The notes under the pieces are model-generated. The model saw only the letters and a list, made by a program, of their open reading frames with translations. It made no database searches and had not been told where the DNA came from. This document shows positions 2,096-21,916 of a stretch of DNA of 25,558 nucleotides, piece by piece. The DNA comes from an uncultured Candidatus Peribacteria bacterium (GTDB lineage Bacteria > Patescibacteriota > Gracilibacteria > UBA4473). The stretch spans positions 1-25,558 of the forward strand of contig CAZBBI010000001.1 of NCBI GenBank assembly GCA_964490135.1, in the 5' to 3' direction. Both the position numbers and the translations under genes were made by a program. Each line of letters starts with the position of its first letter. Position 1 is the stretch's first letter.

Positions 2096-2120
2096 GAATA
2101 ATTTTTCCTATATAAAGATA

Positions 2121-2210
2121 ATCATCCCGTATGAGTGGAGCACCTTCCTTCAGTTTGAAGCGGTTGCTGATGGTTCGTAGAGTCATACCTCTCCCCATCT
2201 CTAGATAAAT
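2121..2210 (-). promoter_or_regulatory. SAM-I (S-box) riboswitch aptamer, compact variant without P4
   Basis: Minus strand TTATC-TAGAG-ATGG..GAGAG GTATGA CTCT ACGA ACCATC-AGCAACC..AAGGTGCT..TCATAC GG-GATGA. P1, P2 with kink-turn-like motif, the P3 AGCAACC/GGTGCT core and the pseudoknot all pair. Directly upstream of metK. Confidence 0.92.
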
Positions 2211-2218
2211 CTATGTTT

Positions 2219-2293: not shown

Positions 2294-3166
2294 ATGTTTT
2301 GGATATTAGCGTTGATTTCGATGTTGGGGTACACAATTCAAGGGACCTTGATGGCTCATTTTATCCGCAAAATTGATCCGTTGTCTATTGGGTTTTATCG
2401 GAGTATTACCTTTTTTATCTCCCTGCTACCACTTCTTTTCTTGGTTGATGTTTCAGAAATTATCGCCATCAAAGATTTTTGGTTTGAAATTTCGATTGCG
2501 GCTTTATTAGGAGCAGCCGCTCAGTGGGCAAGTTTTTGGACTATTAGGTTTTTCTCAGTTGGGATTGCTAGTGCGATCAAGATGGGACTTTTTGTGATTT
2601 TTTCGATTACTCTTGGTGTTTTGTTTTCAGATGAATTTTTAACTCAGGCTCAAGTGTTAGCGGTTATTTTGATTTTGGTTGGAGCAACTGCTTTGGGGAT
2701 TCGAAAAGAAAAAATGCCACACCTTAAACCAGTTGGGTTTTTAGAAGGATTATTGTTTCTTGTCTCAACAAGTATTTTGCTTTCTGTTTCAGTCTTTTTT
2801 GTGGCCAAAGTTTCACGGGAACTTAGTCCTTGGGTATCTGGTTATTTTTGGGAAACAGGGATTGCTGTATTTGCAGGGATTTTCCTTTTATTCCGAAAAA
2901 TATTCACAGGAAAGTCTATCGAAAGAATTTCATTAAAAACCTTTGGAAAGATTTTTTTAACAGCTTGGCCTACTTTACTCGGAACTGGTGGATTTACATT
3001 AGCAGTTAAATACGGACCAGTGGGACTTGTAAACGCAATTAGTGTTTCAGGTATTTTGTTATCGGTAGTTTTGGCTCATTTCTTGTATGGAGAAAAACTA
3101 AAACCAGTCCATTGGAGTCTTATTGGAATAATTATAATAGGAGTAGTAGCGTTGAAGATTTCTTAA
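2294..3166 (+). CDS. DMT/EamA-family transporter
   Basis: 290 aa, about 10 hydrophobic segments in two repeats; C-terminal AHFLYGEKL motif typical of EamA. Confidence 0.85.
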   Translation: MFWILALISMLGYTIQGTLMAHFIRKIDPLSIGFYRSITFFISLLPLLFLVDVSEIIAIKDFWFEISIAALLGAAAQWASFWTIRFFSVGIASAIKMGLFVIFSITLGVLFSDEFLTQAQVLAVILILVGATALGIRKEKMPHLKPVGFLEGLLFLVSTSILLSVSVFFVAKVSRELSPWVSGYFWETGIAVFAGIFLLFRKIFTGKSIERISLKTFGKIFLTAWPTLLGTGGFTLAVKYGPVGLVNAISVSGILLSVVLAHFLYGEKLKPVHWSLIGIIIIGVVALKIS

Positions 3167-7955: not shown

Positions 7956-7991
7956 AAGATTGTTTTTTGTTTGTTATTCCTGTATGGTTAT

Positions 7992-8010
7992 GCGTACCTA
8001 AATACGTACA
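7992..8010 (+). promoter_or_regulatory. Putative YefM operator: two GTAC palindromic cores 12 bp apart
   Basis: GCGTACC (GTAC at 7994-7997) and ACGTACA (GTAC at 8006-8009), just upstream of the antitoxin ATG; same spacing as the TGTACA-core repeats of the E. coli yefM-yoeB operator. Confidence 0.6.
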
Positions 8011-8014
8011 AATA

Positions 8015-8266
8015 ATGACAATAGTTTCTGCAACCGATTTTCGAAAAAATATGTCGGAATATATTCAGCAAACGAGGGATCGTCGACAACCAATAACTAT
8101 TACAACACAAAAACAGGAAGCAATGGTTATGCTACCCCTAAAACAATGGGAAAGTTTTCAAGAGACTCTTTATTTGATGTCGTCGCCAGCGAATAAATCT
8201 AGGTTAGATACTGCTATTTCTGATATAAGAGCAGGGCGATTTAGTACTCATAATTTAGATATATAA
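8015..8266 (+). CDS. yefM: Phd/YefM family antitoxin
   Basis: MTIVSATDFRKNM..., ESFQETLYLMSSPANKSRL matches the YefM C-terminal motif; adjacent to a YoeB toxin; start moved to ATG 8015. Confidence 0.9.
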   Translation: MTIVSATDFRKNMSEYIQQTRDRRQPITITTQKQEAMVMLPLKQWESFQETLYLMSSPANKSRLDTAISDIRAGRFSTHNLDI

Positions 8267-8267
8267 A

Positions 8268-8525
8268 ATGATTATAGCTTTTCATAGTAGAGCTTGGGAA
8301 GACTATTGTCATTGGCAAAAGTATGATAAAAAAATCCTCAAAAGAATTGGACAGCTTTTGAAAGACATAAAAAGAAGTCCATTTTCGGGAAAAGGAAAAC
8401 CAGAACTGTTAAAGTATAATTATAGTGGATTTTATTCTAGAAGAATTACAGAAGAGCATCGATTAATATATACAATTAAAGAGGATACTATTATTATTGC
8501 ACAATGTCGTTTTCATTATGAATAA
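8268..8525 (+). CDS. yoeB: Txe/YoeB family mRNA interferase toxin
   Basis: AWEDYCHWQ, PFSGKGKPELLK, YSRRITEEHRLIY, CRFHY. Confidence 0.93.
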   Translation: MIIAFHSRAWEDYCHWQKYDKKILKRIGQLLKDIKRSPFSGKGKPELLKYNYSGFYSRRITEEHRLIYTIKEDTIIIAQCRFHYE

Positions 8526-9174
8526 CTATAAAATTCGTCGAAGTTCTCGAGCAAAAAAAATAAAACTAGTAGCAAAACCCGAAGGGATAGAGTTAGTTTT
8601 GCCACAATTTGTTCCTGAAATTATGGGGAAAGCTTTTGCGTCTTTACATAAAGATTGGATAGAGAAGCATTCTAAAAAATCAAAAAATGCTTTGCCGTCA
8701 ATTCCAGTAGAAGATGGAGCGGCTGTTTTTTTTATGGGAGAAGCTAAGTTTCGATTGCAAATAAAGGAAACAAATAAAAAATCTTATTATGAAAAAAGGT
8801 CAGAAGACTTAGTTATTTATTTAAAGACAAAAAATAAAAAAGAAATTTTGGATTTAATAGAAAAATTTTACAGAGAAGAAGCCAAAAGATATCTTCAAGA
8901 AAGAACAGAATCTTTTTCTAAAAAGCTAGATACTTCCTTTGGGAGAATAACTATTCGTGGGCAAAGTACTCGGTGGGGGAGTTGCAGTTCCAAAGGTAAT
9001 TTAAGTTACAATTGGAAAATTATGAAGGAGCCGTGTGACGTGATAGACTATCTTGTGATTCATGAGCTTTGTCATCGATTAGAAATGAATCATTCTAAGA
9101 AATTCTGGAAATTAGTTGAAAGTCTTGATCCTGATTATAAAATTCATAGAAAAGCATTAAATGGAAAATATTAA
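8518..9174 (+). CDS. YgjP-like M48/DUF45 (SprT-like) zinc metallohydrolase
   Basis: QSTRWGSCS, IDYLVIHELCH, MNHSKKFW; likely start ATG 8518, overlapping the yoeB stop. Confidence 0.88.
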   Translation: MNNYKIRRSSRAKKIKLVAKPEGIELVLPQFVPEIMGKAFASLHKDWIEKHSKKSKNALPSIPVEDGAAVFFMGEAKFRLQIKETNKKSYYEKRSEDLVIYLKTKNKKEILDLIEKFYREEAKRYLQERTESFSKKLDTSFGRITIRGQSTRWGSCSSKGNLSYNWKIMKEPCDVIDYLVIHELCHRLEMNHSKKFWKLVESLDPDYKIHRKALNGKY

Positions 9175-10240
9175 ATTTAATTTCACAAAAAACATAGATG
9201 GGATTTTGGTTACCACGCCAGAAAACATCAGATGGATTTCCGGATTTAAGGGTAGTTTTGGCTTAGTTCTTTTGAAGAAAAATGGTGAAAAAATTCTTAT
9301 TTCAGATGGTCGGTATGCAGAAAATGCGAAAAGAACTCTTAAGGTGAATTGCGAAGCAAGAGAGAATGCCCTGGGGCAGACTAAAGAGTGGAAGTTCCAA
9401 ATTTTTGATAAAGATTTTAAGAAAAATTTTGGCGAAAAAGTTTCAGGATCGTTTTGGATAGAGGATTTGGCATCTCTTGCCGATTTGAAAAAATATAAAA
9501 AGTTTTTTCCCAATATTAAATTTTTTCCAAAAACAAATTTCTTAGAAGAAAAAAGATCAATAAAAACAGAAATTGAGATTGATAAAGTTAGAATAGCTCA
9601 AAATCATGTAGATGATTTACTTATACCTTTTTTGAAAACTAAACTGAGAGAAAATGTTACGGAAAAATTACTTGCGTTTGAATTAGAACACGCAATTAGA
9701 GATAACGGGAAATTTGATATTAGTTTTGATGCGATTGTGGCATTTGGAGAAAATTCGTCGCTTCCCCATCATCATCCTTCAGAAAAAAAACTAAAAAAAG
9801 GAGATAATATTTTGATAGATTGTGGTGCAAAATTTGAAGGTTATCATTCTGATATGACTCGGAATTTTGTTTTTGGGACGGCTAAAGCCGATTATATAAA
9901 TAAATTTAATATTTGTTTAAACGCACAAAAAAAAGTGTTAGCTCAATATAAAGTTGGGAAAAAAATAAAAGATTTGGAGAATTTTTGTCGTAAAAGTTTA
10001 GGGGAAGAAGAAAAATATTTCACACATTCACTGGGGCATGGTGTGGGGCTTCAAATTCATGAAATTCCAAGTATTTCCATCAAAAGCAAAGATAAACTTA
10101 TTGAAAACCAAATAGTTACCTGCGAACCAGGTCTTTACTATCCTGATAACTTTGGGATTAGAATAGAAGATCTTTTGGTTATTAGGAAAAACGGTCCAGA
10201 GATTTTATCACAAACTAAAAAAGAATTAATTCTTTTTTAG
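9161..10240 (+). CDS. M24 family Xaa-Pro aminopeptidase/dipeptidase
   Basis: HHHP, IDCGAKFEGYHSDMTR, HSLGHGVGLQIHE, EPGLY, GIRIED metal-ligand motifs. Confidence 0.92.
   Translation: MENIKFNFTKNIDGILVTTPENIRWISGFKGSFGLVLLKKNGEKILISDGRYAENAKRTLKVNCEARENALGQTKEWKFQIFDKDFKKNFGEKVSGSFWIEDLASLADLKKYKKFFPNIKFFPKTNFLEEKRSIKTEIEIDKVRIAQNHVDDLLIPFLKTKLRENVTEKLLAFELEHAIRDNGKFDISFDAIVAFGENSSLPHHHPSEKKLKKGDNILIDCGAKFEGYHSDMTRNFVFGTAKADYINKFNICLNAQKKVLAQYKVGKKIKDLENFCRKSLGEEEKYFTHSLGHGVGLQIHEIPSISIKSKDKLIENQIVTCEPGLYYPDNFGIRIEDLLVIRKNGPEILSQTKKELILF
9341..9378 (+). repeat. 38-nt GC-rich two-hairpin repeat, copy 1 (in-frame within the M24 peptidase gene)
   Basis: AAGGTGAA TTGC-GAA-GCAA GAGAGAA TGCC-CTGG-GGCA; 32/38 identical, ungapped, to 20293-20330. 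Confidence 0.8.
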
Positions 10241-10346
10241 TTTTTCACAGGTTAACACAAAAAACCAACATCAAAAAAAATCAATCTAAGTGCTCTAGAC
10301 GAGATTTTTTAAAGGTATAAAATTAATAAGAAAAATTAATATAAAT

Positions 10347-11036
10347 ATGATGTCATATTCGCATAACTTCAAAAATACCAAGATTAGAGAGAAATTTAAA
10401 TTGGGTAAAAAAATATCTTCGATTTCAAAAAAAATTATGTATGGAACACTTATAGGAGTTCTTTTTGTAAATGTAACGTTTGCCTATAATATCTCTACTC
10501 CAAGAGTGGCAGTCGGGTCTTTTTTGACAAAATCATTATGGGATTTGTTAATTGATGATTTGTGGGGTCTTATGATGGAAATGGATACAAATAATGCGAA
10601 TATCTCAACAAATACTGCGAATATTGCAACAAATACTGCAAATATAGGTGCCAATGTACCAACTGGAGCGGTTATGCATTTTAATTTATCAAGTTGCCCA
10701 TCTGGTTGGTCATCTTTGGTGGCGGCAGAAGGGCGATACATGGTAGGGTTACCTTCCGGTGGTAGTTTGGGAGCCTCTGTGGGAAACGCTTTAACGAATT
10801 TAGAAAATAGAGAAGTAGGGCGACATACTCACGTGGTGAATGATCCAGGTCATGCTCATGGAATCGAGCAAATAGTTGGTACCGGTGGTGTTAATTGGGG
10901 TATATCTAGGAATCCAAGTGGAACAACTTTTAATGATTCCTCAACGGAATCTACTGGAATTGTTCTTAGTAATACTGGGGATATAAATGGAACAAATGCC
11001 CCCTATCTACAACTTTTAGTGTGTGAGAAAGACTAA
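10347..11036 (+). CDS. Predicted secreted protein with heptad stalk repeats and a phage tail-collar/tail-fibre-like C-terminal domain
   Basis: Signal peptide ending VTFA; TNxANIx repeats; VPTGAVMHFNLSSCPSGW, GRY, HTH/HAH and NAPYLQLLVCEK are typical of tail-collar/fibre-tip domains. Confidence 0.65.
   Translation: MMSYSHNFKNTKIREKFKLGKKISSISKKIMYGTLIGVLFVNVTFAYNISTPRVAVGSFLTKSLWDLLIDDLWGLMMEMDTNNANISTNTANIATNTANIGANVPTGAVMHFNLSSCPSGWSSLVAAEGRYMVGLPSGGSLGASVGNALTNLENREVGRHTHVVNDPGHAHGIEQIVGTGGVNWGISRNPSGTTFNDSSTESTGIVLSNTGDINGTNAPYLQLLVCEKD
10587..10649 (+). repeat. 3 x 21-bp tandem coding repeat (TNNANIS TNTANIA TNTANIG)
   Basis: acaaataatgcgaatatctca / acaaatactgcgaatattgca / acaaatactgcaaatataggt. 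Confidence 0.85.
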
Positions 11037-11081
11037 AATATACTAGGAAATTTTACATAAAAAGAATATCATAAGCTTGTT

Positions 11082-11915
11082 ATGAATGAATTTGATATAC
11101 AGTATCAGGGAATTTTGAAGGATATTCTTGAAAATGGATATGAGGAGGTGAATGAGAGGACTGGTCATGTATGTAAGAGTCTTCCTGGTATGACGATGAA
11201 GTTTGATCTTGCTAAAGGGTTTCCACTTTTAACTTTGCGGAAAATTCCTTTGAAGGTTTTTATAGCCGAACAAATCTGGTTTCTTATGGGTGCTAGAAAC
11301 TTAGAATGGCTTCAGGATTTTACTAAAATTTGGGACGATTTTGCAGAAAGTAATAATTGTGTAGAAGCTGCTTACGGATATCGTTGGCGGAAGCATTTTG
11401 GACGAGATCAAGTTGATGGACTGGTTAAATTACTCAGTGAAGATCCGTCTTCTAGACATGGAGTGATTCTCATGTGGGATCCCGCTGATGATGGACTAGC
11501 TGGCGGAACAAAGAAAAAGAATGTCCCTTGTCCATACACTTTTACTGTACAAATTATAGGAGGGAAGCTTTGTCTCCACCTTGTCATAAGATCGAATGAT
11601 ATGATGCTCGGAAATCCTCACGATACAGGCGGGTTTGCACTTTTGGCACATTTCTTAGCAGAAAAATTAAAAATTCCTGTTGGTTTTTTAACGGTTTCTA
11701 TTTCTAATGCTCATATTTATGATATTCATTTCGAAAATGCTAAAGAAATTGTAAGTCGGAAATTAGAACATAAACCAATAAAATTTGAATGTCCGAAGGG
11801 GGCGTTCGATCGAGCAGAAAAAGGGGATAAAGATTTAGTTTTAGAATGTTTTGATCAACTTATGTCTAAGTATGATCCACAAGAAAGTTTGGGTAGAATG
11901 AAGATAGTATTGTAG
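11082..11915 (+). CDS. thyA: Thymidylate synthase family protein (atypical active site, Asp at the E. coli Asn177 position)
   Basis: ERTG, FPLLTLRK, EQIWF, YGYRWR, PC (Cys150), RSND, NAHIY motifs; GNPHD instead of GLPFN. Confidence 0.85.
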   Translation: MNEFDIQYQGILKDILENGYEEVNERTGHVCKSLPGMTMKFDLAKGFPLLTLRKIPLKVFIAEQIWFLMGARNLEWLQDFTKIWDDFAESNNCVEAAYGYRWRKHFGRDQVDGLVKLLSEDPSSRHGVILMWDPADDGLAGGTKKKNVPCPYTFTVQIIGGKLCLHLVIRSNDMMLGNPHDTGGFALLAHFLAEKLKIPVGFLTVSISNAHIYDIHFENAKEIVSRKLEHKPIKFECPKGAFDRAEKGDKDLVLECFDQLMSKYDPQESLGRMKIVL

Positions 11916-12043
11916 TCTTGTATTGATTTTTATAAGATTTGATCCAGAGTGCTGATCTAAAAGAACTAAACTCTATTTAGCCGAACCTCTTTTTTTAAGA
12001 TAATTCTTAATTTTATCTTAATATTGTTATATAATTTTTTTTA

Positions 12044-12072
12044 TTGACAGCTTAAGATTTTTACGATAAGAT
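12044..12072 (+). promoter_or_regulatory. Putative sigma70 promoter
   Basis: TTGACA-N17-TAAGAT, 8 nt before the ATG at 12081 (near-leaderless transcript). Confidence 0.55.
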
Positions 12073-12080
12073 TCTCAAAG

Positions 12081-12773
12081 ATGAGCATAAATAAAAAAAT
12101 AATAAAAATATCAATTTTGGTTATTTTATTTTTTTTGATTACCACTTCAATGTGGGCAATTAATAGTATTCAAGAAGGATTTAGAGGCTCTGTCATAAAA
12201 CAAGAAATTGATGTCCATGGAACCTGCAAAAATGTTCAAGCATCTGGGACAAAAGAATATTTTATTCCTACTAATCAAAGTATAGAATGGACAAGTTTCT
12301 TAGCGCATCCACCTGCTGATATAATTATCTCACCATGTTATACTTATATATGGAAAGTTGGAGGCTATGGAGCATGTTCTAAATCTTGTGGAGGAGGTGT
12401 CCAATACCGATCAGTTTGGTGTCAGAGAAGTGATAGTACAACTGTTGCCGATAGTTTTTGTGGAGGTGGAAAGCCCGCAACAAGTAGAAGTTGTAATACA
12501 GCAGCTTGTTGTTCTAATAGGAATGTAAGTCTTGGAACTAATGGTGGGACCTGTTCTACTGCCTGCAGCAACATAGGTCAAAATTGTTCTTCCACTAGAC
12601 ATGAAAACTGGGGACAGCAAGGATCTCATTGGGGACCTTGGGATCCTGGGTGTGGATATGCGGTGCGAGGTTGGAGTGGTGACTGTGGAAGTATGCCAGG
12701 AAAAACTAGTTGTGGAAGCAATATGGACAGAGTAACTGTAGGATCGGCTACTTGTTATTGTTCTTGCAGATAA
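12081..12773 (+). CDS. Predicted secreted Cys-rich protein with a thrombospondin type-1 repeat
   Basis: Signal peptide ending SMWA; WKVGGYGACSKSCGGGVQYRSVWC...C...P...C...C is an ADAMTS-like TSP1 pattern; further Cys-rich C-terminal domain. Confidence 0.8.
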   Translation: MSINKKIIKISILVILFFLITTSMWAINSIQEGFRGSVIKQEIDVHGTCKNVQASGTKEYFIPTNQSIEWTSFLAHPPADIIISPCYTYIWKVGGYGACSKSCGGGVQYRSVWCQRSDSTTVADSFCGGGKPATSRSCNTAACCSNRNVSLGTNGGTCSTACSNIGQNCSSTRHENWGQQGSHWGPWDPGCGYAVRGWSGDCGSMPGKTSCGSNMDRVTVGSATCYCSCR

Positions 12774-12791
12774 AGTCTCATTTACAAAGAT

Positions 12792-12819
12792 TTGACACCC
12801 TCTGCTCTTTCATTATATT
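12792..12819 (+). promoter_or_regulatory. Putative sigma70 promoter of rplJL
   Basis: TTGACA-N16-TATATT immediately before the L10 leader. Confidence 0.55.
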
Positions 12820-12830
12820 TCCTTCGAAGT

Positions 12831-12923
12831 CAAAGACCGTCAGTGTGAGCAATCACTTAAATATCTGACCGAGACGGAGAAAATTTCAACCAAGTTGCTA
12901 ATTTAGGTCGCTCCAAGTATCTC
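12831..12923 (+). promoter_or_regulatory. Ribosomal protein L10 leader (autoregulatory RNA)
   Basis: AAAGACCGTCAG..GTGA-GCAA-TCAC-TTAAATA-TCTGACCGAG resembles the L10-leader pattern (AAGAC..UUAA..CCGAG) with a GTCAG/CTGAC stem; lies 5' of rplJ. Confidence 0.75.
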
Positions 12924-12960
12924 GTAAGTTTTGACTCAATCAAAAACTTACTTTTTATTT
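12924..12960 (+). terminator. Attenuator-type terminator between the L10 leader and rplJ
   Basis: GTAAGTTTTGA-CTCAA-TCAAAAACTTAC (one bulge) followed by TTTTTATTT. Confidence 0.65.
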
Positions 12961-12961
12961 T

Positions 12962-13510
12962 ATGGCAACATCTAAAGAAAAAAAACAATCTCAACTTACC
13001 GCTTTGGAAGAAAAGTTTAAAAATGCAGAAGGTATTGCATTTGTTAATTTTTCTGGGCCAACAGTAAATGAAGTACAGGAGGTTCGACGAGAGTTACGAG
13101 AAAATGGTATGACTTATACTGTTATCAAAAAAACTCTTATCGCTCTTGCTGCCAAAAACATGAAGGTCGCTGAATTTTCATCAGACGATCTAAAAGGAAT
13201 TGTTGCAGTTATTACATCTCAATCAGATGCTATCGCTCCAGCAGCAGCTATTAAAAAACTTAAAAAAGATTTCTTCAGTAAAGAAACTAAAACCGCTAAA
13301 TTTGATTTTTCTGGTTCAGTTTTTGAAGGAAAATTTCTTGATTATGAAGCTACGGCTATACTAGCTGAAACTCCAACAAAAGAAGAGTCTTATGCAAAAT
13401 TCATTGCAACTCTTCGTCACGGGCCAAAAGGTATTCATTCTATGCTTACCCATGGTCTTCGTGGAATTACGCTTTCACTTAAGGAAGCGGATAAATATGC
13501 TTCAGCATAA
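12962..13510 (+). CDS. rplJ: 50S ribosomal protein L10
   Basis: K-K...L, VRRELRE, VIKKTL motifs; upstream of rplL. Confidence 0.93.
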   Translation: MATSKEKKQSQLTALEEKFKNAEGIAFVNFSGPTVNEVQEVRRELRENGMTYTVIKKTLIALAAKNMKVAEFSSDDLKGIVAVITSQSDAIAPAAAIKKLKKDFFSKETKTAKFDFSGSVFEGKFLDYEATAILAETPTKEESYAKFIATLRHGPKGIHSMLTHGLRGITLSLKEADKYASA

Positions 13511-13569
13511 TTTGGGACAACTTTATAAAATTGTCCTTACTTAAATTATTTATTAAAACTTATTAAATC

Positions 13570-13965
13570 ATGTCAGACGAAACAACTGTAACTGTTGAAC
13601 TGTCAAAAGGAGAACAAGGCGTAGTAGACGCTATCGAAAAATTGACAGTAATTGAAGCGAATAATGTCGCTAAATACTTTGAAGAAAAATACGGAATCTC
13701 AGCATCTGCTGCGGTTGCTGCAGCGGCTCCAGCAGCTGCTGAAGAAGAAGAAACTAAATCAGCTTATGATGTAGTACTTAAAGACTGTGGTGCACAAAAA
13801 ATCGCAGTAATCAAAGTAGTACGAGAAATCACTGGTCTAGGACTTGGTGAAGCAAAAACTCTAACTGAAAGTGGTGGTAACATCAAAGAAGGTGCTAAAC
13901 CAGACGAAGCTGAAGAGCTTAAGAAAAAACTAGAAGATGCAGGTGCTACAGTAGAACTAGTATAA
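13570..13965 (+). CDS. rplL: 50S ribosomal protein L7/L12
   Basis: Ala-rich hinge; [20 protein letters not shown]; [10 protein letters not shown]. Confidence 0.97.
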
Positions 13966-13998
13966 TTTTTTATAAATTTTATGAACTTCTTCGTTAAT

Positions 13999-14029
13999 AA
14001 AAAAACCGTTGAAATTTCAGCGGTTTTTT
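13999..14029 (+). terminator. Intrinsic terminator after rplL
   Basis: A-tract, CCGTTGA-AATT-TCAGCGG, then TTTTTT. Confidence 0.8.
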
Positions 14030-14044
14030 GTATTAATGATGATA

Positions 14045-14836
14045 ATGAAAAAAAAATTTGCAGTTATCGGCTATCCCATCAAGCACTCAAAATCACCACA
14101 ACTTCATGAAGCTGGGTTTTTGGAGCTAGAAATAGACGCAAGTTTTGAAAAGCTAGAAATACATCCAGACGATTTGTCTGCTTGGCTGACAGATGAATTT
14201 ATAAATTACGCAGGAGTAGCAGTAACTATTCCACATAAGGAAGCTGTTATGAAATTAGTAGACAAAATAGCTCCTGCCGCTGAAAAAATAGGCGCGATTA
14301 ATACACTTTATTGGGAGAATGAGCAGATAGTGGGTACAAATACAGATTGTATCGGAGCGTTAAAGGCTCTGCAGACAGAATGTCCTGAATTATCAGAAAA
14401 AAAAGTTCTCATACTTGGAGCAGGAGGCGCTAGTCGCGGGGTTATTTTTGCTCTTAAAACTGCAAATTCTAAATTATCTATTTGGAATAGAACAACGTCT
14501 AAAGCGGAACAACTAGCTGAGGAATTTGAAATAGAAGCTATTAAGGATCTTAAGGCTGTAGATGGTGAAGATTTTGATATTATAATTAATACCACTTCAG
14601 TCGGGCTAAAGGAATGGGAATCCCCAGTACCAGAAGATTTCTTTTCTTCACGGAACATAGTCTTTGATATTGTTTATGATCCACTAGAAACCAAGTTTCT
14701 CTCTGACGCAGAAAACGTAGGAGCAACGACTATCACGGGAGACAAAATGTTAGTACATCAAGCACTTGAACAATTCAAAATTTGGCATGGAACCGAACTT
14801 GAAATGGAAATTATGGAGCAAGCGTTTTTTGAATAA
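14045..14836 (+). CDS. aroE: Shikimate dehydrogenase
   Basis: GYPIKHSKSP, VTIPHK, GAINT, NTD, LGAGGAS, DIVYDP; start moved downstream of the terminator (MKKKFAVIG; ATG at 14036 or 14039 also possible). Confidence 0.93.
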   Translation: MKKKFAVIGYPIKHSKSPQLHEAGFLELEIDASFEKLEIHPDDLSAWLTDEFINYAGVAVTIPHKEAVMKLVDKIAPAAEKIGAINTLYWENEQIVGTNTDCIGALKALQTECPELSEKKVLILGAGGASRGVIFALKTANSKLSIWNRTTSKAEQLAEEFEIEAIKDLKAVDGEDFDIIINTTSVGLKEWESPVPEDFFSSRNIVFDIVYDPLETKFLSDAENVGATTITGDKMLVHQALEQFKIWHGTELEMEIMEQAFFE

Positions 14837-14840
14837 TCAA

Positions 14841-14880
14841 ATAAAAAAGAACAACCACAGGGATTGTTCCTTTTTTTATT
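14841..14880. terminator. Bidirectional terminator between convergent aroE and gap
   Basis: A-tract, GAACAACC-ACAG-GGATTGTTC, T-tract. Confidence 0.7.
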
Positions 14881-14894
14881 TCTAAACTTTAAAT

Positions 14895-15893
14895 TTAAAC
14901 AATTCCTGCTAAATCAACAAGCCGGCAAGAATACCCCCACTCATTATCATACCAAGCTAAAACTTTAACCATATCATCGATTACCATTGTTTCGGAAGCA
15001 TCTATTACAGATGATCGAGATTCACATTTATAATCTGATGAAACTAAAGGTTTTGTTTCATATCCTAAAATATTAGGATTAGCATCAGAAGCTTTTTTCA
15101 AAGCAGCATTTACTTCTTCTTTGGTAACATTTCGTCCAACCTTAACCACTAAATCCACAAGTGAAACAGTTGGCATAGGAACTCTTACAGACATTCCATT
15201 AAGTTTTCCTTTTAGTTCAGGTAAAACAATCCCAACGGCAATAGCTGCTCCAGTAGAAGCAGGGATCAAGTTTTCTGCAGCGGCTCGTGATCGTCGAAGA
15301 TCAGGAACTCCTGTATCCAAAAGCACTTGGCTAGTAGTGTAAGAATGAATCGTAGTCATTAATCCTGATTTAATTTCAAATTCATCATGTAAAACTTTAG
15401 CAAAAGGAGCTAAACAGTTTGTTGTACAAGAAGCGTTTGAAATAAGTGTTTCCTCTCCTGTTAAAATATCTTCATTTACACCTAAAACTACAGTTGCAAA
15501 TCCATCTGATTTAGCTGGTGCAGAAATTACAACTTTCTTTGCACCTTGTTTTAAATGTTTTCCAGCTCCTTCTTTTGTTCGGAAAACTCCAGTACATTCT
15601 AAAACAACATCAACCTCTAAATCTCCCCAGGGAAGATCTTCAATATTTCTTGTTGAAAAATTTTGAATTTCGTGTCCATCAACCGTAAGTGTTTTTTCGT
15701 CTGCGCCCACTTTAATATCTCGATGATACGTTCCAAAATTTGTATCATACTTAAAAAGGTGAACAGTTTGTTCAGTTGGAGAAGGATCGTTAATTGCGAC
15801 TAACTCCATTGTGTCGGCGTGCTTGTCCAAAATAATTCGGGCAGATGCACGACCAATTCGCCCAAAACCATTGATGGCTATTCGTTTCTTCAT
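14895..15893 (-). CDS. gap: Type I glyceraldehyde-3-phosphate dehydrogenase
   Basis: INGFGRIGR, SNASCTTNCLAP, WYDNEWGYS. Confidence 0.97.
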   Translation of the reverse strand: MKKRIAINGFGRIGRASARIILDKHADTMELVAINDPSPTEQTVHLFKYDTNFGTYHRDIKVGADEKTLTVDGHEIQNFSTRNIEDLPWGDLEVDVVLECTGVFRTKEGAGKHLKQGAKKVVISAPAKSDGFATVVLGVNEDILTGEETLISNASCTTNCLAPFAKVLHDEFEIKSGLMTTIHSYTTSQVLLDTGVPDLRRSRAAAENLIPASTGAAIAVGIVLPELKGKLNGMSVRVPMPTVSLVDLVVKVGRNVTKEEVNAALKKASDANPNILGYETKPLVSSDYKCESRSSVIDASETMVIDDMVKVLAWYDNEWGYSCRLVDLAGIV

Positions 15894-16015
15894 TTTTATA
15901 TGTTTTTTAAGAATTTAAAGAAAAAATCGCTGGTAGTATAAATCATAATTTATTAATTTCCAATTAAAACATTTTTAATTGCTAAAAACACATCATTCCT
16001 CAATAATTATACTTG

Positions 16016-16576
16016 ATGGAAGTTGCGCTCACTTGGAATCTTGTTTTACTTTCTGGCTTCATTATGTTGTTTGCCTACAGCTTTTTGCTTGGACAAAATT
16101 CTACAATAAAACTTATTCTATCTATCTATATCGCGATTATGACGGCTGATGGTATTGCAAAAATCATTAAAGACTTTGTTATTGCACCGTCTCCTGGGTT
16201 TCGTGAATTGATTGGGGGACACGATGAACAAGTTTATGCTTGGACTCGAATTATATTATTTTTAGCAGCGGTTGTGGTTTTTGTTGTTAAAAGTGGTTTT
16301 CACGTTGCATTAGAAAAACATGATCACTGGGCAGCAAGATTTGGAATTCATGCCCTTTTCTCTGCACTATCCGCGACACTTTTTATTTCAACAATTTTAA
16401 TTTATGTCTCTGGTAATTCTTTTGTAGAAGGAATGCTTTATGCCAAAGATATTCAAATATATCAGCAAAGTTTTCTTGCTCAAATTCTGATAGACTATTA
16501 TCAATTTTGGTTTTCCCTACCAGCTATGGCATTTTTAGCCAATAGTTTTCTTTTTGGGAATGAAACAAAAGCTTAA
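16016..16576 (+). CDS. Hypothetical multi-pass membrane protein (possibly CvpA-like)
   Basis: About 186 aa with 4-5 hydrophobic helices; no motif recognised with certainty. Confidence 0.65.
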   Translation: MEVALTWNLVLLSGFIMLFAYSFLLGQNSTIKLILSIYIAIMTADGIAKIIKDFVIAPSPGFRELIGGHDEQVYAWTRIILFLAAVVVFVVKSGFHVALEKHDHWAARFGIHALFSALSATLFISTILIYVSGNSFVEGMLYAKDIQIYQQSFLAQILIDYYQFWFSLPAMAFLANSFLFGNETKA

Positions 16577-17481
16577 ATAATTTTTTGTTTTCTCAAAAAT
16601 AACCAAAACCCAAAAGATAAAATAATAAATAAAACGAATAATCCTAGATTTATTAGGATAAATGTTAGATGAGAGTTTTCCATTTTGTTGGAAATATTCA
16701 TTCCAAATATACCTGTAAAAAGAGCCAATAAAGCTAATATTCCGGTCACCATTGTGGCGATAAGATCAAATCGAATAATAGAATTTCGTCGGGTATTTAA
16801 TTTTAGAGTTATGATTTCTTGAGTGTCGTCAATATCTTCTTCTAGCCCCAAAAGTTTGTGTTTAATGTCCTCAATTTGTTCCAAATAAGATTCTAGAATT
16901 GATTCAACCTCATCTGTTTCTTTTTGTTTTATACTCAAATATAATTCTGCCAATTCTTCTTCGTCCTCTAAGACTTCTAAAGCGGCTGATTCGTTTTCTT
17001 CAACATTAATTTTAAATCGTGAGATTTTTTTCTTAAGTCGTAACAAATCCCACAAACTTTCTTCAGTGAATTTTTCTTCTATTTTATCGAGAAGCCCCTG
17101 AACGGACGTTTCAATCTTTTGAAATTTATTTAATGATTTTCTGGCTTTATAGTTTAGAGCAAATTCTAAAACTAAGAACTCAAACAGACTAGATCTGTCA
17201 TTCTTTTCTTCAATTGTTTGTTTCAGGTTTGGTATAAAAAAGTCTTTTATATCCCGCTGCCTTATATTTGAAACAAAAACTTTATCTGCGGTTAATACCA
17301 ATTTTATTTCTCCAAAATTCAAAATAATAGCGTGTTCTCGAGTCATAATAGTTGCCACTTGTTTCATCACAAAAACTGGACGCAAATCACGAAGATGAAC
17401 ACCAAGCTCTTGTGCTAAGTCTTTTCTCAATATGTGATGAGATTCTTTTTTTCCGTCTTTTGAAATAGTAATAATATTCAT
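16573..17481 (-). CDS. CorA/Mrs2-family Mg2+ transporter
   Basis: Two C-terminal TM helices with the GMN signature (TGIFGMN); N-terminal LGVHLRDLR resembles the Mrs2 subfamily. Confidence 0.9.
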   Translation of the reverse strand: MNIITISKDGKKESHHILRKDLAQELGVHLRDLRPVFVMKQVATIMTREHAIILNFGEIKLVLTADKVFVSNIRQRDIKDFFIPNLKQTIEEKNDRSSLFEFLVLEFALNYKARKSLNKFQKIETSVQGLLDKIEEKFTEESLWDLLRLKKKISRFKINVEENESAALEVLEDEEELAELYLSIKQKETDEVESILESYLEQIEDIKHKLLGLEEDIDDTQEIITLKLNTRRNSIIRFDLIATMVTGILALLALFTGIFGMNISNKMENSHLTFILINLGLFVLFIILSFGFWLFLRKQKII

Positions 17482-17491
17482 GGTATTCTAA

Positions 17492-18388
17492 CTAAAATAA
17501 TGCACTCTGAAAGGCTTGATTAAGCTTTAATCCTGGAGGAATTGGATCAAATTCTACCTGGTATCCATTTAAATCTTTGCTACAAATAGAAACAATTTCG
17601 TCAGGTAATTCTAAAATCAAAAAAGCCCCTCGTGCAGCTATAATACGACCAGAAACAGATTCACCGTTTTGTAGTTTTATAGTATGAAATGATTTGCTGT
17701 TATTTTTGATATTATCAAGGTTGTAAGTATTTCCCCAATGTTTGAATTCAGGATTTTTTAAAAAATAAGAATTTAAATTTTCATAATCATTTAAACAATT
17801 TTTATGTTTTTCAAAAACATCACGTAAGACTTCTTCGGTCCGTTCTATTGTGATTTCTGGGCAAATAAAATCCTTTTTTGTTGAAGCATTAACTTTATCT
17901 ATAAGCCCACTTTTTCGAAAAAGTGTTTCTATTTGTCTGGCCATAACTCCGTCAGTTGTTTGAGCTATATAAAGCGTTGCTTCGCTTCCTTGTTCGACTT
18001 GTCTCAAACTTTTTCGTTCTAATTTACTTACTCCAACTTTTATAATATTGGTATCAAAAAGGGCTAAATAGACTACATGTGGACCTTGTATTTGTGCCAA
18101 ATCTTCCGGTGTATAATTTGCTGTATTGAATCCATCAAAACTAGTAAAAATAAATCCTCCTTCTCGACCGCGACAAAACTCACATTTTTTCTTTCCCGGT
18201 GTTTGGTTTTGGCAAGGCTGAAATATTCCGTCTCGAACACTTCCAGCGCAAGAAACATCTGATTTAAGTGCCATAGAAAGATTATCTCCAATTTTTAATG
18301 GTTTTTTTGCAAATCGGTTCTCTAAAGCTGCCTGAAATTCAAATTCAGAATCATTGCTCCATCGAAAATCATATAAATGTACTTGCAT
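17492..18388 (-). CDS. DUF2797-like domain protein
   Basis: Cys cluster (CAG..CQ..CEFC), HVVYLA, IKVGVS, RQVEQGS; start uncertain (ATG 18388 or TTG 18442). Confidence 0.7.
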   Translation of the reverse strand: MQVHLYDFRWSNDSEFEFQAALENRFAKKPLKIGDNLSMALKSDVSCAGSVRDGIFQPCQNQTPGKKKCEFCRGREGGFIFTSFDGFNTANYTPEDLAQIQGPHVVYLALFDTNIIKVGVSKLERKSLRQVEQGSEATLYIAQTTDGVMARQIETLFRKSGLIDKVNASTKKDFICPEITIERTEEVLRDVFEKHKNCLNDYENLNSYFLKNPEFKHWGNTYNLDNIKNNSKSFHTIKLQNGESVSGRIIAARGAFLILELPDEIVSICSKDLNGYQVEFDPIPPGLKLNQAFQSALF

Positions 18389-18478
18389 AACTTTTTGAGG
18401 AAATAGCCACTGTAATTTAGAAAAAAACACGTCTAATGGCAAATGAAATCATTTTTTCTCGTTTTTTCTCGTTTTTTT

Positions 18479-18487
18479 TGGTATAAT
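18479..18487 (+). promoter_or_regulatory. Extended -10 promoter element
   Basis: TG-G-TATAAT, 40 nt upstream of the ATG at 18528. Confidence 0.5.
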
Positions 18488-18527
18488 CTGGAGATTAATC
18501 TACTCTTAGTCTAAGCTAAAGAAAAAA

Positions 18528-19472
18528 ATGAAGAAACTTAAGCGAAATGTATTTCTAGGTCTAAAAGAGTTTTTTTGGGGAAAAAAACATTTTCCTAGTA
18601 ATATAATTGTGACAGCTGCACATGGTAGTTATAAAATACCACTTTCTATTTTTCCAAAATTATCATCTTATTACAAAACCTCACCACGGTTATTGTTGAA
18701 TTTTTCTGACTATGGAACGAAATATTTAATAGAAAATGTTCCGTCAGAACAAAAGGTTATTCCTCAATATGGGAGGCTTATTGGAGATACAAATAGGGTC
18801 AAGGATTCTCCAGAACTTATACGTTTTAAAGATTTTGGTGGGAATAGGATTTTTTCTGAAAAATTCGAAAAAAGACTTACAACGTCTTGGTTTCATGCGT
18901 TTTGGTTAAATAAAATTCTAAAATTATCTTATAAACCTTTTTATAATAAAGTTTTTGAGGCGATTGAAAAAGCTGCTAAAAATAAAGAGAACGATGGAAA
19001 ACCAATATTTCTGATAGATGTGCATGATACTGGGAATTTGATACTTGGTTCTACAAAAAAAACAGACCGAAAAAGGAAAGGACTTTTCCAAATGCCAAAA
19101 GTTGTTATATCGAGTGCTCCAGATGAACAAGTTGATGAGGATTGTTTTGGTACAGCTCCAGAATATTTAACTGAGATCTTTCAAGAAAACCTAGCGAATA
19201 AACTAGGACTTGAACTAAGCGAAGTAAAAATAAATCATTTGTTTTACGGGGGGAATGTTGTCCGTTTTTTTGGTAATCCAAATAAAAACGATAGATTGAA
19301 AAAAATTTTGGGAAATAAAAAAATTTATGCAATTCAGATTGAATTTGATCGTGGGTTGTATATGAAAGAAGAGAGTCAACGTCCCATAAAATGGAAAGTT
19401 AAATCAATTAAAAGTGCTTTAATGGAGACGTTACGGGAACTTGAAAGTTCGATTATTAGTGTGGAGAAGTAA
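18528..19472 (+). CDS. N-formylglutamate amidohydrolase-like zinc hydrolase
   Basis: TAAHGS, LIDVHD, IQIEFDRGLYM motifs. Confidence 0.7.
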   Translation: MKKLKRNVFLGLKEFFWGKKHFPSNIIVTAAHGSYKIPLSIFPKLSSYYKTSPRLLLNFSDYGTKYLIENVPSEQKVIPQYGRLIGDTNRVKDSPELIRFKDFGGNRIFSEKFEKRLTTSWFHAFWLNKILKLSYKPFYNKVFEAIEKAAKNKENDGKPIFLIDVHDTGNLILGSTKKTDRKRKGLFQMPKVVISSAPDEQVDEDCFGTAPEYLTEIFQENLANKLGLELSEVKINHLFYGGNVVRFFGNPNKNDRLKKILGNKKIYAIQIEFDRGLYMKEESQRPIKWKVKSIKSALMETLRELESSIISVEK

Positions 19473-19474
19473 AA

Positions 19475-19838
19475 GCTCTTTTTGCGTAAGCCGAGTTTTG
19501 TTAACTATATCATTTATCTTACTCCCGAAAATTGCTTTTCGGTTTCTAGCCGCGAGACAAAATATTAGTCAAAGCTGGAATAATACAACTCTTAATATTT
19601 TGGCCACTCGCGTTTCCACACCTTGAGTTTTAAATACTTCAATCTTGCGAATGAAGCACTACCGAGAATGACCTCGATAAAATTTCATCGACCCCCCGCC
19701 GAAGCGGGGTCGTATATTTTCTGCTTCACTTTTCCTATCACGCTTACACGTGATGATCGGCTGTTAACCGTAAAGTCTTTATTCATGTGGCTCGGACTTT
19801 CCTCCCCACAGATGTGAGGCGATATATACAAAAAGAGC
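19475..19838 (-). ncRNA. rnpB: RNase P RNA (type A)
   Basis: Minus strand GAGGAAAGTCCGAG and AAAACTCGGCTTA (P4 halves); P1 GCTCTTTTTG/CAAAAAGAGC; P2 TATATC/GATATA; P12 with a cUUCGg loop; P18 CCGAAAA-GCAA-TTTTCGG. Confidence 0.96.
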
Positions 19839-19945
19839 ATGTCTATTAATACCAAAGAGTATGTCTAAAATCTACTAAAAAATGACTTTTTACTGTTTTT
19901 CAGGATTTTTTTATTGATTTTCGTTCGGTTGATCAAATAATCTTT

Positions 19946-19973
19946 TTGACAATAAAAATAATATACTTATCAT
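19946..19973 (+). promoter_or_regulatory. Putative sigma70 promoter of rpsP-khpA
   Basis: TTGACA-N16-TATCAT, 28 nt before the ATG. Confidence 0.5.
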
Positions 19974-20001
19974 CGCGAGTGAAAATTAACTTATTTTATG
20001 A

Positions 20002-20418
20002 ATGTTAAAAATTAGATTAGCACGGCGAGGACGGAAAAAACAAGCATTTTACGATGTTGTAGTAGCTGAAAAGGCTCGTGCAGTACAAAAAAAGTATGTT
20101 GCAAAATTAGGATATTACAATCCTCTTACTAAGGGAGGTGAAGGAGAACTAGTTATCGATAAAGAGGCTGTTGTAAAGTACATTAATAATGGAGCAGAGC
20201 CATCACAAACAGCGGCTCGATTGTTAGTAAAAAATGGAATTAAGGAAGCTGGGAAGTTTATAGCAAAACGAGTTTCAAAGCCTAAAAAAGATAAGGTGAA
20301 TGCCGAAGGCAAAGAGGATGCCCTGGGGCAAGCACCCAAGCCAGACCCTAAAGAGGAAGAACCAGCTGAAGAAAAAGTAGAGGTTGCTGAAAAAGAAGAT
20401 ACAGCAAAAAGCGAATAA
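20002..20418 (+). CDS. rpsP: 30S ribosomal protein S16 with an acidic C-terminal extension
   Basis: MLKIRLARRGRKKQAFYDVVV, LGYYNP, GAEPSQTA. Confidence 0.96.
   Translation: MLKIRLARRGRKKQAFYDVVVAEKARAVQKKYVAKLGYYNPLTKGGEGELVIDKEAVVKYINNGAEPSQTAARLLVKNGIKEAGKFIAKRVSKPKKDKVNAEGKEDALGQAPKPDPKEEEPAEEKVEVAEKEDTAKSE
20293..20330 (+). repeat. 38-nt GC-rich two-hairpin repeat, copy 2 (in-frame within the rpsP tail)
   Basis: AAGGTGAA TGCC-GAA-GGCA AAGAGGA TGCC-CTGG-GGCA; 32/38 identical to 9341-9378. Confidence 0.8.
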
Positions 20419-21283: not shown

Positions 21284-21916
21284 ATGAAATATCATTTAAA
21301 CTGGTTTTTTGAAGCATTATTTCCCCCCAAATGTTTGGTTTGTAAAAAAGAAGGAGATTATTTGTGTCAAACTCATTATAAATTTGAAAAAGCACCTTTA
21401 AACGCTGCTACGTTTCAGTTTTTAGATGATGTTTTTGCTAGTACAAAATATTTTTCAATTCCAACAGAGACAATAATTACTAATTTTAAATATAAAGGAA
21501 TTAAAGATTTATCAGATATTATGGCAACAGAAATTTTAAAAAATATTCCTGAAAAGTTTTTAAAAAATACAGTTTTAATTCCAATTCCACTGCACTGGAC
21601 AAGAAAATTTTGGCGAGGTTTTAATCAGGCTGAAATGTTAGTCAATTCCTTAAAACAAAAAAATCCAAAATTTAAAATATTAAAAAACCTCAAAAGGAAA
21701 AAAAGAACTGCACAACAAGCTAAGTTAGGAAAAGAAAGACGGGTTAAGAATATGAAATCAGCGTTTTTGTGGACTGGGGAAACCATTCCCTCAAATGTTA
21801 TCCTAGTTGATGATGTGGTGGCAAGTGGTACAACACTTGAATCGGCAGCAAAAACATTGAAACAAGTTGGAGTAGATAAAGTTTATGGACTTGTTTTTGC
21901 TCGTGGAGGAAAGTGA
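21284..21916 (+). CDS. comF: ComF family competence protein (zinc ribbon plus PRTase domain)
   Basis: FPPKCLVC..LC, PIPLHWTR..RGFNQA, ILVDDVVASGTT. Confidence 0.92.
   Translation: MKYHLNWFFEALFPPKCLVCKKEGDYLCQTHYKFEKAPLNAATFQFLDDVFASTKYFSIPTETIITNFKYKGIKDLSDIMATEILKNIPEKFLKNTVLIPIPLHWTRKFWRGFNQAEMLVNSLKQKNPKFKILKNLKRKKRTAQQAKLGKERRVKNMKSAFLWTGETIPSNVILVDDVVASGTTLESAAKTLKQVGVDKVYGLVFARGGK

Follow-up and report, generated by a model that had tools for sequence, protein, structure and literature searches.

A 39-nucleotide double-hairpin repeat inserted in frame into unrelated genes, a probable selfish element with copies in several bacterial phyla

The DNA analyzed here, called the window throughout, is a stretch of 25,558 nucleotides (nt) covering positions 1 to 25,558 (forward strand) of contig CAZBBI010000001.1, assembly GCA_964490135.1, from an uncultured Candidatus Peribacteria bacterium. 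Two of its genes, one encoding an M24 peptidase and the other ribosomal protein S16 (rpsP), each carry a copy of the same short repeat with two hairpins, referred to below as the element. The genes, the copies and their hairpins are located as follows, with a slash marking the insertion point in uninterrupted sequences here and below.

9161..10240, + strand: host gene 1, an Xaa-Pro aminopeptidase-type M24 peptidase (Creatinase_N and Peptidase_M24 domains), with the insertion in Creatinase_N after SDGRYAENAKRTL
9340..9378, + strand: element copy 1, 39 nt (TAAGGTGAATTGCGAAGCAAGAGAGAATGCCCTGGGGCA), inside the M24 peptidase gene, after the second base of a codon
9349..9359, + strand: hairpin 1 of copy 1, TTGC-GAA-GCAA, which includes the GCGAAGC mini-hairpin (minimum free energy structure and covariation across 16 copies)
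9367..9378, + strand: hairpin 2 of copy 1, TGCC-CTGG-GGCA, which closes the 3' end of the element (folding and covariation)
20002..20418, + strand: host gene 2, rpsP, ribosomal protein S16, with the insertion in the low-complexity KPKKE/APKPEPKEE tail
20292..20330, + strand: element copy 2, 39 nt (TAAGGTGAATGCCGAAGGCAAAGAGGATGCCCTGGGGCA), within the C-terminal tail of rpsP
20301..20311, + strand: hairpin 1 of copy 2, TGCC-GAA-GGCA (folding and covariation)
20319..20330, + strand: hairpin 2 of copy 2, TGCC-CTGG-GGCA (folding and covariation)

A preliminary description of this DNA had reported two ungapped 38-mers (9341-9378 and 20293-20330), identical at 32/38 positions and each lying in the frame of its gene. 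This was confirmed, and a T shared one base upstream extended the repeat to 39 nt with 33/39 identities (9340-9378 and 20292-20330). Translated in the frames of their own genes, the copies read KVNCEARENALGQ and KVNAEGKEDALGQ. The same description was also correct that the copies are GC-rich in an AT-rich window (20/38 and 22/38, against 34% for the window) and that four of the six differences between them are two compensatory pair swaps, TTGC-GAA-GCAA versus TGCC-GAA-GGCA; the second palindrome, TGCC-CTGG-GGCA, is the same in both. A covariance model of the element (model R1) scored copy 1 at 66.9 bits and copy 2 at 65.4 bits. The degenerate consensus pattern had no match in 100 dinucleotide shuffles of the window, about 4e-4 such pairs would be expected by chance under a model of independent, identically distributed bases, and the best 38-mer identity in 40 triplet shuffles was 27-30, compared with the 32 observed. 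Additionally, the S16 insertion (peptide, for example, DKVNAEGKEDALGQ) was found base for base the same in four more contigs, obtained from four other samples, so that an artefact of assembly is excluded.

Sixteen copies could be compared, and their consensus is (T)AAGGTGAAT-NNC-GNA-GN'N'-AGAG-NNN-ATGCCCTGGGGCA. The layout is thus T-AAGGTGAAT-[hairpin]-AGAGNNN-ATGCCCTGGGGCA, where the hairpin has a variable stem and a GNA loop and AGAGNNN is a purine linker. The element is 39 nt long (38-45 nt in other copies), begins with TAAGG and ends with GGGGCA in 16/16 copies, and carries no open reading frame (ORF). Stem positions are 99% Watson-Crick paired. Stem 1 showed ten double changes in two pairs and no one-sided change, with one A.C mismatch and no G-U pair, so that the compensation first noticed between the two window copies extends across the whole set. 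Stem 2, which had been described as invariant, is so in the window; in the copy at locus L015 it has one compensatory change (TACC-CTGG-GGTA, G-C to A-T). None of 500 shuffles attained the observed covariation values, and controls with slid positions collapsed. The loops of stem 1 are GAA, GGA, GCA, GTA or AAA, closed by C-G, and most copies contain GCGNAGC, the consensus of an unusually stable DNA mini-hairpin (PMC13037366). Because this loop fits the DNA mini-hairpin and G-U pairs are absent, we think, from the few sequences at hand, that the structure matters as single-stranded DNA and not as RNA. Outside the stems, about 27 positions are identical between copies of different phyla at 28-53% GC, and the 5' block, read directly, holds a strong Shine-Dalgarno-like AGGUGA.

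Comparison with orthologues showed that both window copies are exact insertions, as had been anticipated from the window alone. In the S16 protein, a clean 13-amino-acid (aa) indel was observed against 22 orthologues (the closest homologues, one 99%-identical protein having been set aside), with KPKKE/APKPEPKEE in the homologues and KPKKD-KVNAEGKEDALGQ-APKPDPKEE in the window. The M24 alignment likewise contained a clean 13-aa indel, VNCEARENALGQT being missing from the 22 closest homologues. At the DNA level, the empty S16 site AAA AAA/GAA (L031, L033) corresponds to AAA GA[T AAG ... GGG CA]A GCA in the window, and the empty M24 site CTA GGT/AAA (L032) to CT[T AAG ... GGG CA]G ACT; taking out the 39 nt T...CA gives an orthologue-like sequence in both genes. 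A third pair of sites was available in htpG, with GAT GAA GA/G AAA empty and GAC GAA GA[T AAG..GGG CA]G AAA filled (L008). No target-site duplication was found in the comparison of filled and empty S16, M24 and htpG sites, each of which is an exact 39-nt gain, and the ends of the 39-nt core are not inverted repeats. The base preceding the element is A at 12/15 sites, and GA precedes it at 9/15; the 5' flanks include AAGA, CTCT, AGGA, AATT, TCTA and GACA, with a bias at the last base only. In the M24 alignment (A2, columns 74-88), orthologue P0128 has a different insert of 8-9 aa (SDPANAGE) at the position of the window element, which, judged from the alignment, may be either a decayed, shortened element copy or an indel unrelated to the element in a permissive loop.

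Further copies were sought with a two-block pattern of 22 specified bases in one genome per species (185,579 species). Thirteen were found, where about 0.6 would be expected by chance; all have the full motif, each with its own complementary stem. They lie in at least nine metagenome-assembled genomes (MAGs) with five to six phylum or class labels, two to three copies occurring in single MAGs. The labels comprise Peribacteria (three contigs of one MAG), Gracilibacteria, Sulfurimonas/Campylobacterota, Pseudomonadales, Lentisphaeraceae and Zetaproteobacteria/Mariprofundaceae (two contigs of one MAG and another MAG). These taxa are the labels of MAG bins and some may be wrong, L007 for example looking like the candidate phyla radiation (CPR); in the htpG and fab-operon contexts, however, the genes truly belong to Campylobacterota and Zetaproteobacteria. 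A metagenome scan returned one true copy, L015, which is 1 nt shorter, and two chance matches (L014, L016); its pattern had the linker ARAGNNAT and could not match standard copies (ARAGNNNAT), so that it gives no measure of abundance. In viral contigs, a scan with the 3' half found one true copy (L017), present on two contigs, with a 6-bp first stem (TTGAGC-GAA-GCTCAA), inside a 135-aa ORF of unknown family beside PcfJ-like and DUF3102 genes. Two exact-pattern scans of viral contigs found nothing, and blastn against INPHARED phages and PLSDB plasmids gave chance-level partial matches only. No match to Rfam 15 was obtained at the element, at gathering thresholds or at E<=10 and with lax filters included, in the window, nine loci and excerpts of 81-141 nt. 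With these 13 genome loci, one metagenomic copy and one viral copy, the expectation that copies exist in relatives was borne out and surpassed: as far as sequence comparison goes, the element is a real family spread across several phyla, beyond one genome, and it apparently has not been described so far.

Six independent coding hosts were recognized, namely the M24 peptidase, S16, a rhodanese-multicopper oxidase (L002), HtpG (L004, L006, L008 and others), KhpB/Jag (L007, in the C-terminal tail, 2955-3011, five codons ahead of the stop) and the viral-contig ORF (L017). The insertion sites are linkers, tails or loops, in agreement with the earlier proposal that the element adds peptide segments at permissive sites. 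All coding copies are open and a multiple of three (39 or 45 nt), and all six independent insertions share one strand, one codon phase and the peptide KVNx[EGAV]xRE[NDY]ALGQ; the codon before the element is GAT, CTT, TAT or TTT, and its last codon is CAA, CAG or CAC. Under random orientation and phase, such a bias has a probability of about (1/6)^5. It is not imposed by stop codons, since five of the six frames of the element are free of them and the sixth contains a TGA. We attribute the bias to selection for a single hydrophilic reading at the peptide level; a mechanism linked to transcription is a possible alternative.

The intergenic copies are placed less uniformly. Those at L010 and L013 lie downstream of genes on the same strand, those at L009 and L012 are antisense between co-directional genes, that at L005 is divergent from its gene, and that at L015 lies between two convergent genes; this mixed orientation speaks against a cis-acting mRNA signal. 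In the Peribacteria-labelled MAG and one Gracilibacteria MAG, in both of which TGA has to be read as sense, long spacers crowded with repeats contain the element in the middle of a repeat of 85-136 nt, and L009 and L010 (Zetaproteobacteria-type) have flanks of their own in common. The shared core with differing repeat surrounds indicates a universal core around which larger, lineage-specific versions have formed. In the 85-nt CPR version, pairing is conceivable between C-rich and G-rich arms; a consensus fold of its four sequences gave no usable covariation. The spacers of the Peribacteria-labelled MAG, CAZKLD01, measure 1-1.4 kb and are also crowded with other repeat families of 36, 165 and 290 nt. 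A start cassette made of Shine-Dalgarno sequence, hairpin and ATG was considered and rejected, as the motif ATG opens ORFs of 6-42 codons that bear no relation to one another, and is replaced by ATA in L015. At L007 this ATG shares its frame with rnhA, the RNase HI gene downstream (MPWGKKLRMSSLKIYTDGG...), whose own start is probably the next ATG downstream. A gene for a Vsr-like very-short-patch repair endonuclease was noted at L001 (4946-5386 in motif orientation), about 470 nt from the element, where its neighbours are genes of 680 and 276 aa. A CCTGG (CCWGG) site is present in the element itself, and the combination is probably a coincidence.

The htpG gene of Sulfurimonas provided the closest view of gain and loss. 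Among the 120 closest Sulfurimonas HtpG proteins, 115 are without the insertion (..DE/EKKEIYY) and five are filled. In the tree, the filled alleles are dispersed, and each of the four intact ones has an empty allele as its closest neighbour, at 95.8-99.0% aa identity. At L008, the flanks to the left and right are native and the gain is exactly 39 nt; four other filled alleles have a common rearranged stretch of about 15 nt upstream of the element. The right border of the difference between filled and empty DNA coincides with the exact end of the element. An empty allele 4% from a filled one has the native upstream flank, so that simple excision from the filled allele cannot explain it. The changes at this locus look like very short allelic replacements that move essentially only the element.

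Copies at L004, L006 and L008 are 38/38 identical, with the same stem, in genes that differ by 14-18% and whose flanking codons differ at the borders; third codon positions inside the motif are 12/12 identical in three species, compared with 0.53-0.75 in the flanks. A three-substitution variant of the htpG copy was found at L024/L026. At L025, a decayed copy occupies the same htpG site with 14/39 nt changed, still forming a 12-13-aa insert in an intact htpG. That the intact copies are identical may stem from recent transfer or from purifying selection on the core, and the two are not separable here.

Altogether, we consider it reasonably probable that the two repeats of the window are copies of a very small (39 nt), non-autonomous selfish insertion element, similar in effect to the Rickettsia palindromic elements (RPEs). 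This reading is favored because the insertions are exact and lie in unrelated genes, some MAGs have more than one copy, the spacers are repeat-rich and strains are polymorphic; one copy has decayed, another occurs on a viral contig, and the hosts have no functional link. Single MAGs have two to three copies, and this 25.5-kb window has two. The element enters DNA as an exact 39-nt unit and leaves the reading frame unbroken. The conserved core and the hairpins would be recognized by trans-acting machinery, most likely on single-stranded DNA. Spread from allele to allele would proceed by recombination or gene conversion, the looped-out element being passed on by itself or with very little flank.

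Several results weigh against a selfish insertion element. No transposase or other candidate for a mobilising gene was found in the 25.5-kb window, no gene is common to the loci among the annotated neighbours, and no clear target-site consensus emerged among 15 sites. Relative to the element, the GC skew of the surroundings is positive for eight copies and negative for eight, a measure confounded with gene strand, and it indicates no consistent replication-strand orientation of the kind seen in IS608. Predicted folding energies are ordinary (z about -1.2 with both DNA and RNA parameters), so that it is the covariation that supports the structure. The covariance model, which also misses the known decayed copy L025, found no extra copies in about 150 kb of locus sequence. 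Finally, the near-invariance of the roughly 27 non-stem bases across phyla exceeds what is usual in families of transposable elements of the miniature inverted-repeat type (MITEs) or repetitive extragenic palindromic (REP) sequences and would also fit a motif useful to the host; it is in part a product of exact-pattern searching, and variants do exist (L015, L024, L025).

A stronger version of the selfish reading, which we regard as unlikely, holds that the element is the smallest known in-frame mobile element, a structure-driven gene-conversion parasite of the whole microbial community (CPR, other phyla and virus). Needing no transposase of its own, it would spread as a compact single-stranded DNA loop with GCGNAGC-type mini-hairpins that survives heteroduplex or loop repair during recombination or transformation. 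The looped-out element would be copied alone into empty alleles, and host replication or repair activity would occasionally seed new sites. A loop that survives repair in this way would explain the native flanks of L008 and the sharp borders at htpG.

The main rival is that the element is a cis-acting nucleic-acid motif, a binding site for protein or RNA that is useful to the host and held by purifying selection, its mobility being incidental and due to lateral transfer and recombination. A candidate partner would be the ribosome, as AGGUGA is complementary to the 3' end of 16S rRNA. Core conservation and this Shine-Dalgarno-like sequence in the 5' block keep the possibility alive: about 27 non-stem positions are identical across phyla, the 12/12 third positions are kept in htpG with conservation ending sharply at the borders of the element, and the decayed L025 shows the fate of a copy without constraint. 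Nevertheless, we judge it possible but rather improbable. The motif is dispensed with by 115/120 close HtpG orthologues and by all S16 and M24 orthologues below about 75% identity, its host genes share nothing, and its copies at L009 and L012 are antisense, and that at L005 divergent, to the flanking genes. The ATG of the element opens no conserved ORF and is ATA in L015, no Rfam family was matched, and the identity of the htpG copies is explicable by recent allele-to-allele transfer.

Nucleotide-level conservation within essential genes is also a trait of self-removing insertions, which brings in an untranslated RNA-level element, either a mini-intron or a translational-bypass ('hop') cassette, conserved since failed removal harms the host protein. 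The gap of T4 gene 60 carries hairpins and an SD-like (Shine-Dalgarno-like) sequence (cf. bioRxiv 10.1101/2022.08.31.505936), as does the element. This explanation appears very unlikely, given that the coding copies are all open, a multiple of three and in one phase, none of which removal needs, and that they have neither a stop codon nor matching take-off and landing codons; no ribozyme family was matched, and the decayed L025, in frame within an intact htpG, implies that readthrough is tolerated. It is more improbable still that the 13 residues (KVNxExREDALGQ) are a selected peptide module, such as a short linear motif, with the DNA similarity secondary. The six coding copies do share a frame and the peptide is hydrophilic and helix-prone, but conservation extends to synonymous positions, against the codon usage of AT-rich hosts, residues 4-6 vary freely and do so as complementary codons (the stem covariation), and 10/15 other copies are intergenic. 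Chance resemblance and an artefact of assembly have nothing in their favor but the small match size, and the shuffle controls, the at least 13 independent copies elsewhere with covarying stems and the contigs of four further samples leave them a negligible probability. Resemblances to RNase P J11/12-P12 (UAAGGGUGAAA and a hairpin), 5S rRNA and the 38-bp inverted repeat of Tn3 were taken as coincidence; the RNase P RNA of the window is without the motif, and Rfam gave no match.

If the element is mobile, no described element with in-frame insertion comes close to its small size (RPEs measure about 150 bp), and it is not restricted to one lineage. This raises the questions of which machinery would recognize a 39-nt double hairpin across distant hosts, and whether recombination alone could spread it. 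In universal marker proteins (S16, HtpG), the element causes indels of 13 aa by which near-identical strains differ, and it may confuse alignments, phylogenies and strain typing. It also marks permissive insertion sites in host proteins, and with its GCGNAGC-type hairpin it would provide a natural example of a motif that has so far been studied mainly in vitro.

Other features of the window were recorded in the course of this analysis. Its 30 ORFs end in TAA (26), TAG (3) and TGA (1); the sole TGA-ended ORF, a ComF-like phosphoribosyltransferase (21284-21916), stays open for 51 codons further, into a 467-nt gap. TGA may therefore be a sense codon in this organism (code 25), as in its Gracilibacteria relatives, although it is otherwise almost unused. 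Similarly, L001, L003 and L011 of MAG CAZKLD01 (labelled Peribacteria), and L012, have almost no long ORFs in the standard code and are fully coding with TGA as sense, from which it follows that CAZKLD01 uses a code of the 25/4 type. A bacterial class A RNase P RNA lies at 19471-19838 (- strand) between an FGase-like gene and rpsP, with a deviant J11/12 (GUCGAUGAAAU where GUAAGGGUGAAA is expected) and some shortened helices, and a SAM-I riboswitch at 2119-2211 (- strand) lies upstream of metK (913-2085, - strand). A YefM/Phd antitoxin and YoeB toxin pair (7967-8525, + strand) stands directly upstream of the YgjP-like and M24 peptidase genes, and a 230-aa protein encoded at 12081-12773 (+ strand) has a thrombospondin type 1 (TSP1_ADAMTS) domain, which is unusual for a bacterium. 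A perfect 32-nt palindrome over the stop of the M24 gene (10212-10243) and an imperfect 55-nt palindrome between rplL and aroE (13988-14042) are probably terminators. Diverged direct repeats with 75/150-nt spacing (families D2 and D8) at 1-447 probably belong to a gene with repetitive coding sequence that the window end truncates.

Among known systems, the translational bypass elements (the T4 gene 60 gap and the yeast mitochondrial byps) resemble the element as short, structured insertions in coding sequence that are derived from mobile DNA. In bypass elements, a stop codon is present, the take-off and landing codons match, and the length does not have to be divisible by three, whereas the element is always open, in frame and a multiple of three, with no such match. 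Mitochondrial GC clusters, double-hairpin elements and repetitive hairpin-forming elements are also small, GC-rich double hairpins in AT-rich genomes and polymorphic between strains, and some lie within coding or rRNA regions (PMC4478555, PMC2800124). They differ in being organellar and lineage-specific, with no common sequence and no counterpart to the cross-phylum core. The absence of terminal inverted repeats and target-site duplication from the 39-nt core separates it from classical MITEs and is shared with the palindrome-associated transposable elements (PATEs) derived from IS200/IS605, which also have a hairpin near each end and which, like the element, could conceivably be gained and lost seamlessly. 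Insertion of IS200/IS605 elements takes place 3' of a fixed target of 4-5 nt. The 5' flank of the element shows a weak A/GA preference only, its stem-1 sequence differs among copies in one genome, and the changes at htpG resemble allelic replacement, not excision.

The preliminary description had pointed to a selfish element of REP or RPE type. REP sequences and REPINs mobilised by REP-associated tyrosine transposases (RAYTs, HUH Y1) are similar in size (20-40 nt), hairpins, lack of an ORF and occurrence in more than one copy per genome, and recognition as single-stranded DNA is plausible here as well. REPs, however, are extragenic and have GTAG or CGTC as a tag at one end (PMC3733652), whereas the element starts with TAAGG, has neither tag in 16 copies, lies within six host genes and consists of two hairpins with a conserved linker between them; no RAYT or IS200-type (HUH) transposase was found in the 25.5-kb window. 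By the features compared, the REP part of the proposal is not supported, and the RPE part fits through the in-frame insertions in six host genes. RPEs measure about 150 bp and are known from Rickettsia, in coding genes and between genes (PMC10969869). At 38-45 nt, the element is about four times smaller and falls below the RPE length of about 100-150 bp; it shows no sign of a sequence relationship to RPEs, and its near-invariant core occurs in several phyla and on a viral contig, with hosts in CPR, Campylobacterota, Zetaproteobacteria and others. What it shares with RPEs is the manner of insertion, as both form hairpins, lie in frame in unrelated genes as well as in intergenic regions, and add a conserved peptide at permissive sites of their host proteins.

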